From NCBI GenBank assembly GCA_963833575.1, contig CAWHXY010000007.1, forward strand, positions 544,001-608,000: a stretch of 64,000 nucleotides of DNA, given 5' to 3'. The DNA is from Candidatus Bathyarchaeota archaeon. Lineage in GTDB: Archaea > Thermoproteota > Bathyarchaeia > Bathyarchaeales > Bathycorpusculaceae. Both the position numbers and the translations under genes were made by a program. How positions within the stretch are numbered: the first letter of the stretch is position 1; the number at the start of each line of letters is the position of its first letter. Of this stretch, positions 6,795 through 12,774 are shown piece by piece. Under the pieces are notes generated by a model. The model made no database searches. It was given only the letters and a program-made list of their open reading frames with translations, and was not told where the DNA came from.

Positions 6795-7279
6795 GTCATC
6801 TCCTTACTATGCTTTCACTAGTTTCCGGTAATATCTTTGATATTTCAAATCGCGAAATATTCCAACTAAGAAATCATTCCTAAGCCAATTATGCAATAAG
6901 CCAGTCTAAAATCGAGAGGTAAGATTAGCTTCTTTTGTTATGTATTTGACTTTGACGTAGTTTCTATTTCAAAGCATATCGGGTTTTGTAAATCGTTCCA
7001 AAACCGCGCGCACCGTAACATCTTAACAACGCCTAGCTTTCAACTGCCCTACCAACATTACTTTTGAAAATCTTAGCGCTAAGTCGGAAAGCGTCTCTAC
7101 CAAAGTTCTTATTTATTTTTCTAAAATCTTGTCGATCGTCAGCAAACTTGGCAGGCAATTTCACGTTGACATACCATTTAGACACTTTGTTGCCTCTTGA
7201 AATACCAATAGGCAAAGAGAGTCTATTAACAAAATTATTATAATCCATGCTTCAATTAACAGTCACCAAGGTGTCAACG

Positions 7280-8047
7280 ATGAAACAATTCCTAATTACT
7301 CCAGCGGCAGGAAAACGCTTAATAGCCAAAACCCTAGCAAACCACCCAGCAATTAAAAAAGCCCTCAAAAACGGAACGCTCGTGATTGTTGCTGGAACAA
7401 CCAATGGCTATGTGGCTGAAGAAATTTTCAGAACTAACAATATCTCAAATGATTTCTCTAGGGGAAGGTTCTTTAGGGGGATAACTTTGCCGCCGACCAA
7501 GTCAGTAACCGTTGAGGGGAGGCTTGCTGACGAGAGCAAGTTTCCTGGCGACGTTGTTATAACTGAGGGTGTGTGGCAGAAAGGCAAAACAATTGCTGAT
7601 GTCGTTGATTCGCTTAAAGAGGGCGATGTTATCTTGAAGGGCGCAAACGCTTTGGATCTGACCCGTAAGCAGGCGGCTATTTTGATTGGTCATCCGAAAG
7701 CTGGAACTATAGGTTTAGCCTTGCCTGCCGTACTGGGGCGACGAGTGAAACTCATAATACCCGTTGGCATTGAGAAACGTGTAAACAGCGATTTGTCCGC
7801 CTTAGCAGAAAAGCTCAATGTTCCTGGTGTAGGCGGGTACCGTTTGTTGCCTGTTGTCGGAGAAGTATTTACTGAGTTGGATGCGTTAATTGCTTTAACT
7901 GGTGCTGAAGTTGAATTGATTGCTGCTGGTGGAGTTTGTGGCGGCGAAGGCTCCTGCTGGATAGCTGTAACTGGAAATGAAGAACAAGAGGAATTTGCCG
8001 CCGAAATTATTGCTTCAATAAAATGTGAACCAGCATTTAGTCTTTGA
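7280..8047 (+). CDS. Hypothetical alpha/beta protein (Gly-rich)
   Basis: ATG 7280 preceded by AGGTG; motifs [30 protein letters not shown]. Confidence 0.8.
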
Positions 8048-8340
8048 CAAAACATTGCACGGCGTAGAAAATTTCTAAGTTTCAGGTCAAAACTTAAGGA
8101 TAACTTGTGTGGATTTATCAAATCACTGTATTGACAGCATTATTTGCGACAAATTGTAGCCACACTTTTGTTGTCACAAATATTTAATAGAAAATCTCAT
8201 CATTAGATTAGTAGGTGCGTCCTAACAATCAAGAAAGATAGTAGTAATTCAGAAATTCTATTTTAATCCAACCAACCAGATTTGCAAACAAGGGTTGAGG
8301 TTTGAGTTTGCATGAAGAAAATATAGTGTTTGAATACCTT

Positions 8341-9114
8341 TCAAACCGGTTTTTTCTTACCTTTGTTTCTCATTGCTCTGATACCAATGACAATAGTCTT
8401 GGCTTTTCCAGTCAGCCCTCCTCTAAAGCTGGCGTTAACCATTTCCCTATAGTCGTTTTTAGATATTGGTACGTCACTGATAGTTTGCATTGTTTCAGGA
8501 GATATAGTTCCATTAACCAACTCAGCACCAGCTTTTCTAATCGCGTCAATATTGTCATCAAGCAAATGCGGAACGTTTGCTGCCCCGGCAGACGGGATTA
8601 GAACTTCGCCAGCCCAGGTTAATCCCATATGCATCATAATCTTCTCAAAATGTTGACTCATTAAGGCGAAATTCTCCATGTCTGGAAAACCGCAAGTCGA
8701 AACTAAGACCCCTTTTGCCTTAGGTGCATACCGCTGAGGGTGATTAGTTATCCCATTATCCATTAGAATCTGAGAGGATTCCAAGTTTACAAAGAACCTA
8801 TCAATTATGTTTTTTACGGTGGCAGGAAAACCAAAAACGTACACGGGAGCTGCGATGATAAAGTAGTCACATTTTTTGTAAACGTCGTATATTAATTGAA
8901 AATCGTCTTTCTGGACACATTGACCTTTGTTTTTTCTTTGCCAGCAGCTCCAACAGCTTGTACAGGGTCCAATTTTCATTTTATGCGGATAAAACTTGTG
9001 AATTTCCACTTCACCCATTCCTTCAAGCAAGCGGTCTAACATTTTTTCAGTGAAAGAGGGGCTTCTGAGAGAACCCGATATAGCCAAAACTGTTGGGATC
9101 TTTTTGACAGACAT
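8341..9114 (-). CDS. Flavodoxin-family iron-sulfur flavoprotein / NADPH-dependent FMN reductase
   Basis: ISGSLR, CTSCWSC-x8-C, AAPVY, KNIIDR, STCGFP. Confidence 0.88.
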   Translation of the reverse strand: MSVKKIPTVLAISGSLRSPSFTEKMLDRLLEGMGEVEIHKFYPHKMKIGPCTSCWSCWQRKNKGQCVQKDDFQLIYDVYKKCDYFIIAAPVYVFGFPATVKNIIDRFFVNLESSQILMDNGITNHPQRYAPKAKGVLVSTCGFPDMENFALMSQHFEKIMMHMGLTWAGEVLIPSAGAANVPHLLDDNIDAIRKAGAELVNGTISPETMQTISDVPISKNDYREMVNASFRGGLTGKAKTIVIGIRAMRNKGKKKPV

Positions 9115-9401
9115 TGTTCGTGACTTCCAAGTAAGTCAACTTATTTCCACTTTTTAAGTTTCCTTTTATTACCTTATTATGATCAAAACTACGCGTCCTT
9201 TTCATTCAAGGCTCAGCATACTTAATGTGCAATTTCAGGAAAACTATTGAGAACAATTGTGGGGTGTACATTAAAACTTAAACCAACCAACTTTACTCCA
9301 CTCAGTACCACGAAAAATGGCTTATTCAGCAGTAGACCGACTCACCAGATACATAGAAACCATTTATCAGTGTAGAAAAGAGGAAAATAAAAATCATCAC
9401 A

Positions 9402-9429
9402 TGGGCATATTCGGAATCGAATATACGAC
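9402..9429 (+). repeat. 28-bp dif-like site, copy A
   Basis: tgggcatattc-ggaatc-gaatatacgac; 23/28 identical to copy B. Confidence 0.7.
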
Positions 9430-9540
9430 TCTAACAAAAGTAGACGTTCCAAGAATACGCACTAAGAACAAAGAACAAGTTCTGTTTAGCCCCAGCTACC
9501 CCAAAAGCCTTAAGCTAATGCCACGCTTTGGAGTTATAGC

Positions 9541-9999
9541 GTGATTCATTTGTCTCTTGAAGTTGTACCGCATGTTGAGCTGGAAAAATATTTAGGCAAA
9601 TGGTATGAGATAGCACACCTTCCCGCAAAATTTGAAGAAGGCTGTAATGAAACCACTGCCACCTACACATTATTAAAAGATGGCAGCATATCCGTGCTCA
9701 ACCAATCTATAAAAAACGGCAAGATAAAACAGGCAAAAGGCAAGGCAAAAGTAGTTGATAAGAACTCTAATGCAAAACTCAAAGTAACGTTCTTCTGGCC
9801 GTTTTATGGTGATTATTGGATCATTAAATTGGGGAATGATTACGATTACTCTGTTGTAGGTACACCAAACCGCAAATATCTTTGGATATTGAACAGAACC
9901 CCACAAATGAATGACAAGCTATACTCACAATTAATAGAATACGCAAAGTCAAAAGGCTTCGAAGTAAACAAGCTCATCAAAACTCTTCAAAAAGCATAA
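9541..9999 (+). CDS. blc: Lipocalin (Blc-like)
   Basis: KYLGKWYEIA, KLKVTFFWPFYGDYWII, YLWILNRTP. Confidence 0.92.
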   Translation: MIHLSLEVVPHVELEKYLGKWYEIAHLPAKFEEGCNETTATYTLLKDGSISVLNQSIKNGKIKQAKGKAKVVDKNSNAKLKVTFFWPFYGDYWIIKLGNDYDYSVVGTPNRKYLWILNRTPQMNDKLYSQLIEYAKSKGFEVNKLIKTLQKA

Positions 10000-10140
10000 T
10001 GCAAATACGTCTAAAAATAATACCCCAGAAATGTTGAATTAAATTTTGATCCCACCAACCCAACCAACTACTTTTACCTCAGCGGTTTAAGGCATAAGCG
10101 GGAGACACGGTTCAGTAAATACTCAGCAGATTAACCATAT

Positions 10141-10168
10141 AGGGTATAGTCGGAATCGAGTATACGCC
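10141..10168 (+). repeat. 28-bp dif-like site, copy B
   Basis: agggtatagtc-ggaatc-gagtatacgcc; arms are 8/11 inverted complements around a 6-bp spacer. Confidence 0.7.
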
Positions 10169-10238
10169 ATTTTTTGCTAATCCTGAATTGATTCTTAATT
10201 CATAATCCTTATTTGAGAATCTTCCAAACATATGAAAT

Positions 10239-10595
10239 ATGAAAAAGCTTTCGAAGTCTTTATTCATGAACGTGCCTGTAGAATCCTGTTATGACATAAT
10301 AAGGACAACTGACCCTTCTCGGTACGTAAGCGATTTAGTTAGTTTTTGGTCACTAGGTTTTAGCAAGGAAATTCCAAATGCTCTGTTGGTTTTTGAATGC
10401 AGAGACAATCAAGGGCGATATGTTATTACTGAGATTTCATTTCTTAAAACAACTGATTCCTCGTGCGAACTCACATTAAATTTCTCTTATGACCATATGG
10501 ATGGAAGATATTCGGGGTTAATTCTTACTCAAATAATTAATGGGTACACACTATTAGACCATGCATACAACATTGGAAAATCTACGAAAGGATGA
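10239..10595 (+). CDS. Hypothetical protein (possible SRPBCC-like fold)
   Basis: 118-aa ORF; strand-helix...strands-helix pattern. Confidence 0.6.
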   Translation: MKKLSKSLFMNVPVESCYDIIRTTDPSRYVSDLVSFWSLGFSKEIPNALLVFECRDNQGRYVITEISFLKTTDSSCELTLNFSYDHMDGRYSGLILTQIINGYTLLDHAYNIGKSTKG

Positions 10596-10698
10596 AGAAG
10601 TTTTAATCCACCACCTCATCGTGGCTCAATTACTGATTACTAATTCCTAAAGCAGAAATAGCGTTAAATCAATTCGTCAATAGAACTAGGCGAACTGC

Positions 10699-11082
10699 TT
10701 GAGTGATGTAAAGAAACGTGGAAAGCAAATAATCCATTGTGAAGTGCAAGACGGAAAAGACTGCCCTCACCAAAATCGCCTTGTCTACGACGAGGCTTTC
10801 TATAAAGAAGTTAACGGAGATTGCTTTGATTATGAAAATGAAATGGGAAAGCAAATTTTGTTACATTTGCAAGATCTTACAAAGAGAGTTTATCGCAAAT
10901 GTCCAAATTGTGGGTCATTAATTCCAGAGATTGAGTTACACACTGAAGACAGGATATTCACTCTGACTTGCACGAAAATAGCGAATAGGAAAGGGAAAGT
11001 GATAGCTGAAACTGAATACGAACAGTTGAAAAAATATTTGCATAGCCATAACAAAAATCTACGCACTAAGAAAACAAACTGA
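10699..11082 (+). CDS. Hypothetical Cys-containing (zinc-ribbon-like) protein
   Basis: 127-aa ORF with CPNCG and additional Cys. Confidence 0.55.
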   Translation: MSDVKKRGKQIIHCEVQDGKDCPHQNRLVYDEAFYKEVNGDCFDYENEMGKQILLHLQDLTKRVYRKCPNCGSLIPEIELHTEDRIFTLTCTKIANRKGKVIAETEYEQLKKYLHSHNKNLRTKKTN

Positions 11083-11100
11083 TGCAATTGTAATACAGTG

Positions 11101-11128
11101 ATAGTATAGTATTAATCGAGTGTACGCG
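11101..11128 (+). repeat. 28-bp dif-like site, copy C
   Basis: atagtatagta-ttaatc-gagtgtacgcg; 21/28 identical to copy B. Confidence 0.6.
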
Positions 11129-11230
11129 AGGCTCAAGAGAACAAAAAAGAAAAATGAATGCAATAGGTCAGTTTCGCTAAGTAAACCTTATATTTTAGTA
11201 TTGAGTATTACGATATAATAGGTAATACGT

Positions 11231-12028
11231 ACGGGTAGGAAAAAAAGCATTTCTCTAATTGCAATTATAATCTTAGTGGTAAGCATTGGAGTTGTCTCAG
11301 CTGATCAAGCAGGCTTCATTACAATTAACATATTTAACAGTCCAGGACAAGTAGACGTTAACGCTTCAAATAGCACAATAACTCAGAATGTAACACTTAG
11401 TAACTCAACATTAAACCTAAATGTCAACGGTCAAAACATAACAATAAGCACACAACCGACTCCAACGCCCACATCAACACCTTCACCCACACCGCTTCCA
11501 GATGTTAAAGTGTCAATTCCCATTGGCACCTCTCCTACGTATTTTGCTCAAAATTACAATTCGACTTTGTATGATAATAATGGAGATGCGTATGCTGCTT
11601 TCTTTTACAGTTACTACCTTAATGATACAAGCATAAGCCAAGCGAGTTACTTCGCCAATTTCGCGGTTTCAGGGGAGGATTTTCAGTCGGCTAATCAGAC
11701 GGCTTCTGGTGTAGCAACAGTTGACGGAAAGGTTGTGCCCAGTTGGCACGTTTTAAATACGCAACTACTCTATGATAGATTCCGAAACGTCATTGAATAT
11801 AACGACGGCAATATTAATGGAGCAACCTCCACAAATAATACGCTTCTATCCACCCAAATAACAAATCAAATAGGCAAAGTCATTTCTATTGCTGAGGGTA
11901 TAACGATCCCTGGCAACTACTTCGTAATTACTTTGGATTTTCCAACACAATTGACACCTGACCAGCAACTTGTTCTTAACCAGATCATAAACGGTTACGT
12001 TATCTTAGAGCTTGGACTACCAGGATAA
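11231..12028 (+). CDS. Secreted Thr/Asn-rich protein with PT linker; apparent non-canonical start
   Basis: In-frame signal peptide (T)GRKKSISLIAIIILVVSIGVVSA begins at ACG 11231; PTPTPTSTPSPTP linker; many NxS/T sequons. Confidence 0.7.
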   Translation, partial: TGRKKSISLIAIIILVVSIGVVSADQAGFITINIFNSPGQVDVNASNSTITQNVTLSNSTLNLNVNGQNITISTQPTPTPTSTPSPTPLPDVKVSIPIGTSPTYFAQNYNSTLYDNNGDAYAAFFYSYYLNDTSISQASYFANFAVSGEDFQSANQTASGVATVDGKVVPSWHVLNTQLLYDRFRNVIEYNDGNINGATSTNNTLLSTQITNQIGKVISIAEGITIPGNYFVITLDFPTQLTPDQQLVLNQIINGYVILELGLPG

Positions 12029-12351
12029 TTGTTCAACTTGTTTTTTAATTAAAACTTAAAGCAAAAAAATTGAGTAAAGGCAGGCTTTATGAAGAATTAA
12101 TTCCAATTGAACAATTATCCTATAAAGGGTATATTACTCCTGAACTTGTAAATGCTAAAATAAAACAAATTTTAGATTAAGTTAAAAAAGAAATGTCGCC
12201 TTTCGTCGAAAAATGGGTCAATAAAGAAAACGAGTCTGATTGGAAAGCAACCTGTGAAGCTATGGACAAAAGAAATATGGCGAGAGAAAATTGGTTTATT
12301 AAATGGTTTGGTGAATAAAAGTCAATAAAAAAAAGAAAACTGTTTTTTTTA

Positions 12352-12552
12352 TTATTGGCCATGGTGCATCATACCCATGCCCATACCGCCTCCTTCTTTG
12401 CGTTTTGCCATCATGCCTTCTCGCCAATTCTGAATAAGTCCTGGTATTACATTGCTCATCATTTCCGTGTCCATTTTGATTAACTCCATTGCTGCCTGGT
12501 TGATTTCAAGCTCAAAAGTTAATTTTACTTTACCGTTCTTTTCTGCTTCCAT
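12352..12552 (-). CDS. Small Met/His-rich hypothetical protein
   Basis: Strong RBS GAGGAGGTG; C-terminus GGGMGMGMMHHGQ. Confidence 0.7.
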   Translation of the reverse strand: MEAEKNGKVKLTFELEINQAAMELIKMDTEMMSNVIPGLIQNWREGMMAKRKEGGGMGMGMMHHGQ

Positions 12553-12774
12553 AAATCCACCTCCTCAAAATCAAAGTTGAAAACTGGCTTCAGTTATTTA
12601 ATTGGTTAACGATTGAATGTTTTAAAGTTAAGTGGCTGTGTCGATACAACAACAAAAGGTTTTATGAAAAATGACGGTTTTTCAGTAGATTGGAAAATTG
12701 GCAATGATCAAATTTTACAAATCTGCCTGAAATTTATCGAAGAATTTTTTAGCATTTGAATTACCAAAAAACAA

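Follow-up and report, generated by a model that had tools for sequence, protein, structure and literature searches.

The described systems closest in layout to the repeats considered here are Xer/dif sites, integrative mobile elements exploiting Xer (IMEX) and the pdif modules of Acinetobacter, which resemble them in a short inverted-repeat site, a 6-bp asymmetric centre and direct repeats bracketing genes; pdif modules are bordered by sites of alternating orientation, whereas the sites described below are direct. These sites were found in a 64,000-nucleotide stretch of DNA (the window; contig C7, positions 544001-608000, GenBank CAWHXY010000007.1) from a Candidatus Bathyarchaeota archaeon of the family Bathycorpusculaceae, whose genome assembly (GCA_963833575.1) comprises 2.75 Mb in 8 contigs and is 94% complete. 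A first-pass annotation, made from the letters of the window, described three of them (A, B and C) as dif-like sites at which small gene circles had been integrated serially by a recombinase acting in trans. That proposal is not tenable as stated: no XerA was found, breakpoints lie off the spacer, and the ends of the inserted island carry no site. The bathyarchaeal repeat further differs from Xer/dif, IMEX and pdif sites in being a composite of 130-190 bp, present in many dispersed and patchily distributed copies.

Other families of repeats resemble it in part. The res sites of Tn3-family transposons and of plasmid resolution are composites of ~120 bp with irregularly spaced inverted motif pairs and a trans-encoded enzyme; here, no serine recombinase (PF00239) was found in the window's genome, there is no transposon context, and several copies occur per chromosome. 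The archaeal origin recognition boxes (ORB and mini-ORB) consist of two ~22-bp inverted boxes around an AT-rich stretch and are low in copy number, whereas the present element occurs in a minority of genomes, has a short AT-rich stretch and shows no recurring Orc1/Cdc6 or Rep among 399 neighbouring open reading frames (ORFs). Repetitive extragenic palindromes (REP/REPIN-RAYT), Correia-type miniature inverted-repeat transposable elements (MITEs) and 'mobile promoters' are alike in forming intergenic inverted doublets of a 20-odd-bp palindrome, free in orientation and promoter-like in content; the bathyarchaeal element differs from these in having 1-9 copies and not hundreds, no link to Y1 transposases, no target duplication and old, divergent copies. 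Finally, integrons have been reported in archaeal genomes, and clusters of attC sites lacking integron integrases (CALINs) are recognized as two or more co-oriented sites less than 4 kb apart (PMC9668308). The attC sites are similar in being ~60-130-bp co-oriented repeats between small, unrelated, mostly orphan genes, with two inverted boxes, a variable centre and an integrase that is mostly not nearby. The bathyarchaeal element differs in its other boxes, the lack of a single-strand signature, an extra palindrome-CCAACC module, random gene orientation, arrays of 2-5 units only and the lack of IntI.

The element is discrete, double-stranded and similar to a protein-binding site, with two conserved ends, and it is autonomous from its neighbours. 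It is an old element of few copies, confined to a single bathyarchaeal family within a group of soil and peat archaea and patchily distributed there, and it borders gene blocks that are also met in other contexts. The accessible running text of the literature on archaeal integrons, XerA/dif and mobile elements of Bathyarchaeia (figures and PDF supplements apart) holds no account of it, and within that coverage it is a previously undescribed family of composite intergenic repeats, protein-binding or recombination-site-like in character.

A composite element ending in a 22-bp palindrome

Sites A (9402-9429), B (10141-10168) and C (11101-11128) lie on the + strand of the window with the letters first reported. 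B differs from A at 5 of 28 positions and from C at 7, and the sites follow each other at 739 bp (A to B) and 960 bp (B to C), in agreement with the identities (23/28 and 21/28) and spacings given by the first-pass annotation. A degenerate 23-nt pattern matched exactly A, B and C, against an expectation of 0.01 and with three or more matches in 0/100 shuffles, which confirms the claimed set of three direct repeats; a 24-nt pattern derived from B, with up to 3 mismatches allowed, matched A and B (expectation 0.00, 100 shuffles). The layout, GTATAGTC-GGAATC-GAGTATAC, places inverted arms of ~11 bp around a 6-bp spacer (GGAATC in A and B, TTAATC in C) and is equally readable as 9-4-9, so that the imperfect arms, the asymmetric spacer and a geometry like that of tyrosine-recombinase sites have all stood up to re-examination. 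The conserved unit within each site is a 22-mer, an imperfect palindrome of the form GTATAGTCG-GAAT-CGAGTATAC (Table 1).

Inspection of the flanks of 45 congener matches, 12-19 of which were aligned, revealed that A and B are the 3' ends of composite elements of 130-165 bp, while C is a lone core. Members of the family are intergenic, and the 22-mer forms their 3' terminus. At the 5' end stands an AT-rich palindrome (GGATTAAATTTTAATCC-like), in many copies with a tract before it that is purine-rich or GGGTTT; CCAACC repeats and a variable body with recognisable subtypes come next. An upstream arm, which is an inverted and degenerate copy of the right half of the 22-mer (GTAKAC-CG-TTC), is separated from the 22-mer by an AT-rich spacer that ends in AATCA..ATATAG and whose length is bimodal, at ~20-27 and 60-72 bp, in 104 distinct copies. 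The 22-mer carries inverted arms of 8-9 bp around a conserved asymmetric centre, a second strong half-site lies inverted 20-110 bp upstream, and a 13-bp pair resembling terminal inverted repeats (GTATAC-CGATTC ... GAATCGAGTATAC) encloses 60-130 bp. Conservation ends no more than ~5 nt past the 22-mer, and the ends of the element are sharp.

Orphan 22-mers, half elements and tandem sites also occur in the family, the tandem sites at irregular spacings (46, 48, 51, 58, 60, 61, 69, 91 and 104 bp) that show no helical phasing. The specificity of the 5' motif resides only in the palindrome joined to its CCAACC flank, the 11-mer AT-rich core by itself being no more frequent than similar AT-rich words, and scans for isolated half-sites or 13-mers gave background only. 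Runs of T follow the 22-mer in B, in the copy on contig C4 and in one metagenome group. A ~70-nt A-rich module, carrying hairpin-like AGGGGTAA...TTACCCCT and ...CCCTCGCAAAAA, was also observed 3' of some 22-mers (L017, L029, L030, L119 and L026; in the window's own genome from C7:535091 onward), and two loci have a second 22-mer after this module, which there resembles an ORF-less unit between two sites. Palindromes of the type ATTAAATTTTAAT that lack a 22-mer stand between single small genes at C4:334181-335541, C4:325828-327103, C6:320059-321681 and C7:331930 of the same genome, bordered by microsatellite-like tracts of (GA)n, (CA)n and GGGTTT repeats; they may serve as punctuation at promoters or terminators, or represent a further type of boundary motif.

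Several results bear on whether the inverted repeats act as duplex DNA or as a folded strand. Mismatches between arm and site in 104 distinct pairs were divided almost equally between G.T (128) and A.C (131); neither strand is favoured, which is the behaviour to be expected of duplex inverted repeats and not of a selected hairpin of RNA or single-stranded DNA. Fold z-scores for five elements ranged from -0.10 to -1.77 on the element strand and from -2.08 to +1.51 on the opposite strand, and no compensating changes maintaining a local hairpin were found. A long-range stem predicted with RNAalifold was 93% paired in 72 distinct sequences, a figure taken from an alignment itself fitted to the covariance model; it is nearly invariant, with 8 cells changed on both sides. 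In Rfam the best match to window positions 8800-12700 had an E-value of 0.71, and all matches were far under the gathering score.

By nhmmer and pattern scans, the genome that contains the window holds five full and two partial elements, together with orphan core C and a lone 5' motif, on two contigs. A fourth copy of the core, on contig C4, is a perfect match to the 22-mer of B and has upstream patches in common with B as well; beyond their motifs, copies within one genome have little in common. With up to 3 mismatches allowed, the 22-mer occurs in 20 of 61 genomes of the genus at 1-9 copies each (reversed-pattern control, 0), and a covariance model built on 12 class-1 copies (R1) found 68 full-length matches across 44 of 120 genus genomes. 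With up to 2 mismatches, 17 of 401 genomes of the class were positive, all within the window's family (16 of 103 others, 8 genera), and none of the 298 class genomes outside it. At least 123 stretches of metagenome contigs contain the 20-nt core. The 22-mer is unchanged in several genera, against 71-79% identity for flanking core genes of congeners, although its conservation figures are inflated because the instances were collected by searching with that same 22-mer. Two close relatives, G013 (100% complete) and G012 (completeness range 95-100%), have no copies. These dispersed and patchy copies, in 20/61 and 44/120 genomes, do not agree with what is expected of a dif site, namely a single copy on each replicon, placed where replication terminates, and presence throughout a lineage that uses it.

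Co-oriented clusters around 1-3 small genes were found in G113, G002, G070, G054 and G112 as well as in the window. A search of IMG/VR returned a single 9.9-kb contig (L109) with a class-2 element at 1997-2185 and no viral hallmark in the inspected part. In the locus L052 (G023:C10), AbrB/PIN and ribbon-helix-helix-like pairs of small genes, judged by eye, occupy 7071-9630, 3' of an element; such pairs would be typical of variable regions rich in toxin-antitoxin genes, as in chromosomal cassette arrays.

An inserted island and the ends of its gene blocks

In the window, the sites lie within an island between two convergent conserved genes (Table 1). These flanking genes are adjacent in 9 of 12 congeners examined, and G021 has the exact empty junction, 8050|12322; positions 8051-12321 are therefore an insertion. 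The first-pass annotation had assigned to the intervals between the sites a lipocalin gene, two orphan ORFs and a gene for a secreted protein, and these are indeed the lipocalin gene, two ORFs and the 250-aa ORF found there, the product of the last being probably a secreted or surface protein, as judged from its predicted sequence. In a PHROG search of the island proteins, the lipocalin alone was matched, to a family of unknown function. A possible left half-site that had been placed at 12126 was missed by all scans and falls inside the broken copy of a coding ORF. This ORF matches nothing in Pfam or PHROG, and two relatives have it in intact form (L051, 3793-4050; L052, 4582-4833).

Table 1. 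Features of the island (window coordinates) and full elements of the same genome (contig coordinates)
Feature	Position	Strand	Remarks
Island, 4,271 bp	8051-12321		Between convergent conserved genes 7247-8047 (+) and 12352-12552 (-)
Solitary 5' motif (AT-rich palindrome remnant + CCAACCAACC)	8262-8280	+	No following 22-mer
FMN_red/flavodoxin-like gene, cargo	8341-9114	-	Pfam PF03358, E 6.8e-18
Element A, degenerate full element (5' motif, body, inverted arm, 22-mer)	9268-9430	+	nhmmer E 3.7e-15; R1 48 bits, E 2.9e-6
Core 22-mer, site A	9405-9426	+	3 mismatches to B core
Lipocalin_2 gene	9541-9999	+	Pfam E 4.7e-49
Element B, full class-1 element (palindrome, CCAACC repeats, body, inverted arm, ~21-nt AT-rich spacer, 22-mer)	10036-10166	+	nhmmer E 1.3e-24; R1 114.9 bits
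Core 22-mer, site B	10144-10165	+	Identical copies in other genera
118-aa ORF, cargo	10239-10595	+	No Pfam or PHROG match
127-aa Cys-rich ORF, cargo	10699-11082	+	No Pfam or PHROG match
Orphan 22-mer, site C	11104-11125	+	4 mismatches; no element body, preceding ORF stops at 11082
250-aa ORF with Thr/Pro-rich linker, cargo	11276-12028	+	
Broken copy (36-aa + 41-aa pieces) of conserved 83-85-aa ORF	12070-12319	+	Contains 12126
Full elements in the genome	C4:113 kb, C4:215 kb, C7:535 kb, C7:553.3 kb, C7:554.0 kb		

Parts of the island recur elsewhere as separate blocks. Homologues of the FMN_red gene occur in G012, G002, G013 and elsewhere in the window's own genome at 83-86% nucleotide identity, the lipocalin gene recurs at 82-88% and the small ORF (12061-12320) at 86-88% in seven congeners, whereas core flanks in the same genome pairs are 71-76% identical, that is, below the block identities. 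The conserved lipocalin block begins ~13 nt past site A and reaches as far as element B. Gene order in G012 is a permutation of that in the window, with the small ORF directly adjoining the FMN_red gene. The view of the locus as inserted and accessory is thus upheld by an island of 4,271 bp whose blocks recur in other contexts.

A different insert of 1.75 kb was observed at the same 8050/12322 point in G009 (L102, G009:C145), bordered by a ~35-bp direct repeat of the 3' end of the left gene in an integrase-like manner; the interval separating the two convergent genes (7247-8047, 12352-12552) is an insertion hot spot. When three DNA sequencing runs were compared with the locus, they yielded short contigs only, in which neither the circle junctions that the first-pass annotation had called for nor deletion junctions were seen; one contig, which may derive from the source sample, spans the right end of the island at 12321. 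The window also encodes a proteasome alpha subunit, in keeping with an archaeal source.

The relation of elements to block ends was examined in a pooled set of 149 distinct site instances, of which 122 had full flanks. Among these 122, the right flank was common from the site onward in 34 pairs, and the distal left flank was also common in only 3. One right flank, shared by six metagenome loci at 85-94% identity, stands behind five left contexts, one of which is an orphan site, and in two further groups right flanks of identical type (84-94%) are preceded by different subtypes, 1a being swapped with 1b. The locus G071:C31 combines the left side of G042:C25 (96%) with the body, 22-mer and right flank of G042:C172 (97%). 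Such recurring right flanks and subtype swaps bear out the proposal that the ends of homology blocks coincide with the elements.

Precise excision was considered for the copy on contig C4 and rejected, a paralogue at C7:538 kb lacking 833 bp that include the element but have limits unrelated to its ends. The paralogous segments (87% and 96% identical) are adjacent at C7:538001-539128 and are split by those 833 bp on C4:112490-114370, a region from which short blocks recur in many congeners at 83-92% identity.

Candidate enzymes and competing explanations

The explanation placed first, though tentatively and at well short of even confidence, is that a recombination or mobile module, itself non-autonomous, has the elements as its ends, which are double-stranded, bind protein and delimit shuffled blocks of accessory genes. 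A site-specific DNA enzyme encoded in trans, for which the most plausible candidate is one of these genomes' many tyrosine recombinases, would bind and synapse the palindromes, and the two conserved ends would be joints at which accessory-gene blocks are excised, re-joined or exchanged. Such events would have produced the lone 22-mers (among them site C), the half elements and the tandem sites. The window would then present an intact element (B), a decaying element (A) and an orphan core (C) within an island built of blocks, marking cassette boundaries and not a dif site.

The window's genome encodes five full-length tyrosine recombinases (374-476 aa); a further two, weaker matches to the XerA model include a fragment containing a stop codon. 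The genome's best score against the XerA equivalog NF040815 was 69 bits (cut-off 220), the candidates in this 94% complete genome being integrase types of 370-476 aa, and its recombinases scored 35-53 bits against the integron integrase model TIGR02249 (cut-off 265). No match to the serine recombinase domain was found in the genome, and its one TnpB match is under the cut-off and far from the elements. No elements lie near the genome's five integrases. As a separate observation, three paralogous tyrosine recombinases of ~470 aa are encoded at C2:256-1686, C7:18806-20233 and C4:3583-4992, one of the three lying less than 2 kb from a contig end, and a 374-aa integrase is encoded at the start of contig C1; these genes suggest repeated mobile elements that break the assembly.

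A number of observations count against shuffling by way of these elements. The ends of the island in the window have neither a repeat nor a site. The crossover in G071:C31, the sole clean recombinant, lies inside the 5' palindrome-CCAACC motif and not in the spacer. Pairs with the same left flank and different right flanks at the 22-mer were not found in the pooled set, an absence that matters because reciprocal site-specific exchange should yield them. Among bathyarchaeal lipocalin loci, only 3 of 40 besides the window have an element, in each case 112-117 nt before the start codon, and at loci without the site homology begins ~13 nt past the position of the 22-mer with no half-site kept. G002 has the block to the right of the C4 copy at 92% identity with the site missing, and in another genome the site lies 21 nt further out, so that the junction to one right flank varies (0, 21 nt or absent). 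Breakpoints do not fall in the spacer, where a cassette of the IMEX or pdif type would have them, with hybrid sites left behind; they lie ~13 nt outside it, at variable offsets or in the 5' motif. Short-homology recombination would give a similar picture wherever a non-coding sequence is conserved. There is also no sign of recent movement, because copies in the same genome agree in motifs only; no target-site duplication was seen at the element ends; and the conservation of the 22-mer is overstated for the reason given above.

The search for a partner gene counts in the same direction. The five recombinases had no phmmer match in the 399 ORFs located up to 2.5 kb from elements, and clustering of these neighbours gave no family of more than 3 distinct members. 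By tblastn, an integrase lies within ~1 kb at one place in the genus (G042:C132) and at 1 of 80 metagenome loci, which is about the chance frequency by a rough estimate made without a formal test. The commonest integrase type (L002) does not track the element: 103 of 120 genomes encode it, and some carriers of the element, such as G113 with 3 copies, lack it.

Possible, if somewhat more doubtful, is a portable transcription unit, which fits the same facts almost as well as recombination ends do. The AT-rich palindrome would be a promoter with its TATA box, and the remainder would be a small RNA gene of ~110-170 nt with its end at the 22-mer or, together with the palindrome, a promoter plus operator for a dimeric, family-specific factor; block boundaries would coincide with elements merely because these are the sole conserved non-coding sequence among unrelated neighbourhoods. 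Boxes of the aaa.cCTTAAAT type, similar to the core of the palindrome, stand before the tRNA genes of the window's genome, purine-rich tracts often precede the palindrome, and in G012:C8 a palindrome-CAACC motif stands ~100 nt upstream of the FMN_red start. A transcription unit would also suit the discreteness of the element, its independence of orientation, its great age, its few copies without any burst and the purifying selection on it. In a membrane-protein family, the 22-mer (in full elements or as an orphan) lies 18-20 nt upstream of a putative transcription factor B recognition element (BRE) and TATA box in L033, L032b and L043, and an orphan 22-mer precedes the start codon by ~40 nt in L092; the T-runs after some 22-mers can be added to these points.

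The position of the site is fixed within single gene families only, namely the membrane-protein and lipocalin families. When the next gene was scored at 121 of the 149 instances (the other 28 having a short flank or being the first site of a tandem), 53 were co-oriented, 58 were convergent and 10 had no ORF within 450 nt, counts that are approximate owing to a crude ORF caller. For co-oriented genes, the distance from site to start ranges from 3 to 308 nt. The alternative offered by the first-pass annotation, an operator for the downstream gene, thus fails as a general account, and with half of the next genes convergent the same distances and orientations speak against a transcription unit, as do the unphased tandems and the inspected flanks, in which no terminator is consistently found 3' of the site. 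The folding evidence is similarly unfavourable: no Rfam match, weak folds on both strands, no wobble bias and no hairpin compensation. Patchy presence would, in addition, demand an equally patchy regulator.

A decayed non-autonomous transposable element, mobilised by a transposase and derived from a MITE, REP/REPIN or IS200/IS605-type source, is improbable. The 13-bp inverted pair, the sharp ends, the partial copies and the variable junctions could be read in this way, and so could the varying presence of the element before closely related lipocalin genes, as at the 3/40 loci. The copy numbers of 1-9 per genome, with none near-identical within a genome, and the missing target-site duplications speak against such an element, and neither a serine recombinase nor a TnpB above the cut-off is available in the window's genome. 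Y1 transposases (PF01797) occur in 42 of 120 genomes, 18 of which are also element carriers, a distribution without association (Fisher p = 0.33); ten Y1 loci were inspected and contain no element-like sequence, and no longer partner with the same ends as the element was found. At C7:653945-654303 lies a Y1 transposase gene of IS200/IS605 type that is degraded and contains an internal stop.

Integration of small gene circles in the style of IMEX and pdif at dif-like sites of a host XerA is very improbable. It draws on the 11-6-11-like geometry with its conserved asymmetric spacer, on direct repeats around 1-2 genes and on the inserted island. Against it stand the dispersal of copies on two contigs, their restriction to a minority of congeners with none in G013 and G012, the lack of a XerA equivalog and of half-site scars, the variable junction offset and the crossover in the 5' motif, and the tandem full elements A and B are unlike the product of integration at a single chromosomal site.

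That the sites are canonical attC sites of a CALIN, as in archaeal genomes, is hardly credible: their co-orientation at 739 and 960 bp and their inverted repeats around a centre of variable length fit such a cluster, but the outer boxes GTAKAC/GTATAC differ from the R''/R' consensus, and there is no strand-specific pairing, no IntI, no Rfam match and no consistent ORF orientation. A replication origin was set aside because presence is patchy and no Orc or Rep neighbours recur among the 399 ORFs.

Meaning for the Bathyarchaeia

Bathyarchaeia are abundant uncultured archaea of sediment and peat, and their means of gene exchange are almost unknown. In one family of this group, the element provides a sequence marker for variable, horizontally exchanged neighbourhoods, and its 22-bp palindrome, base-identical across genera, can serve as bait for the putative protein that binds it. 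It also permits a check for archaeal cassette exchange beyond the canonical integrons already reported. A bolder proposal, and a rather unlikely one at present, is that one family of Bathyarchaeia would have its own form of cassette shuffling, in which accessory genes pass from species to species as blocks bounded by a composite double-stranded site (the AT-rich palindrome with CCAACC on one side, the 22-bp palindrome with its inverted accessory half-site on the other) and are re-joined by an unlinked recombinase, functionally analogous to integrons and pdif modules while using an unrelated site and enzyme. If the portable promoter or small-RNA unit were the true account, the element would be the first family-specific regulatory element for this group.

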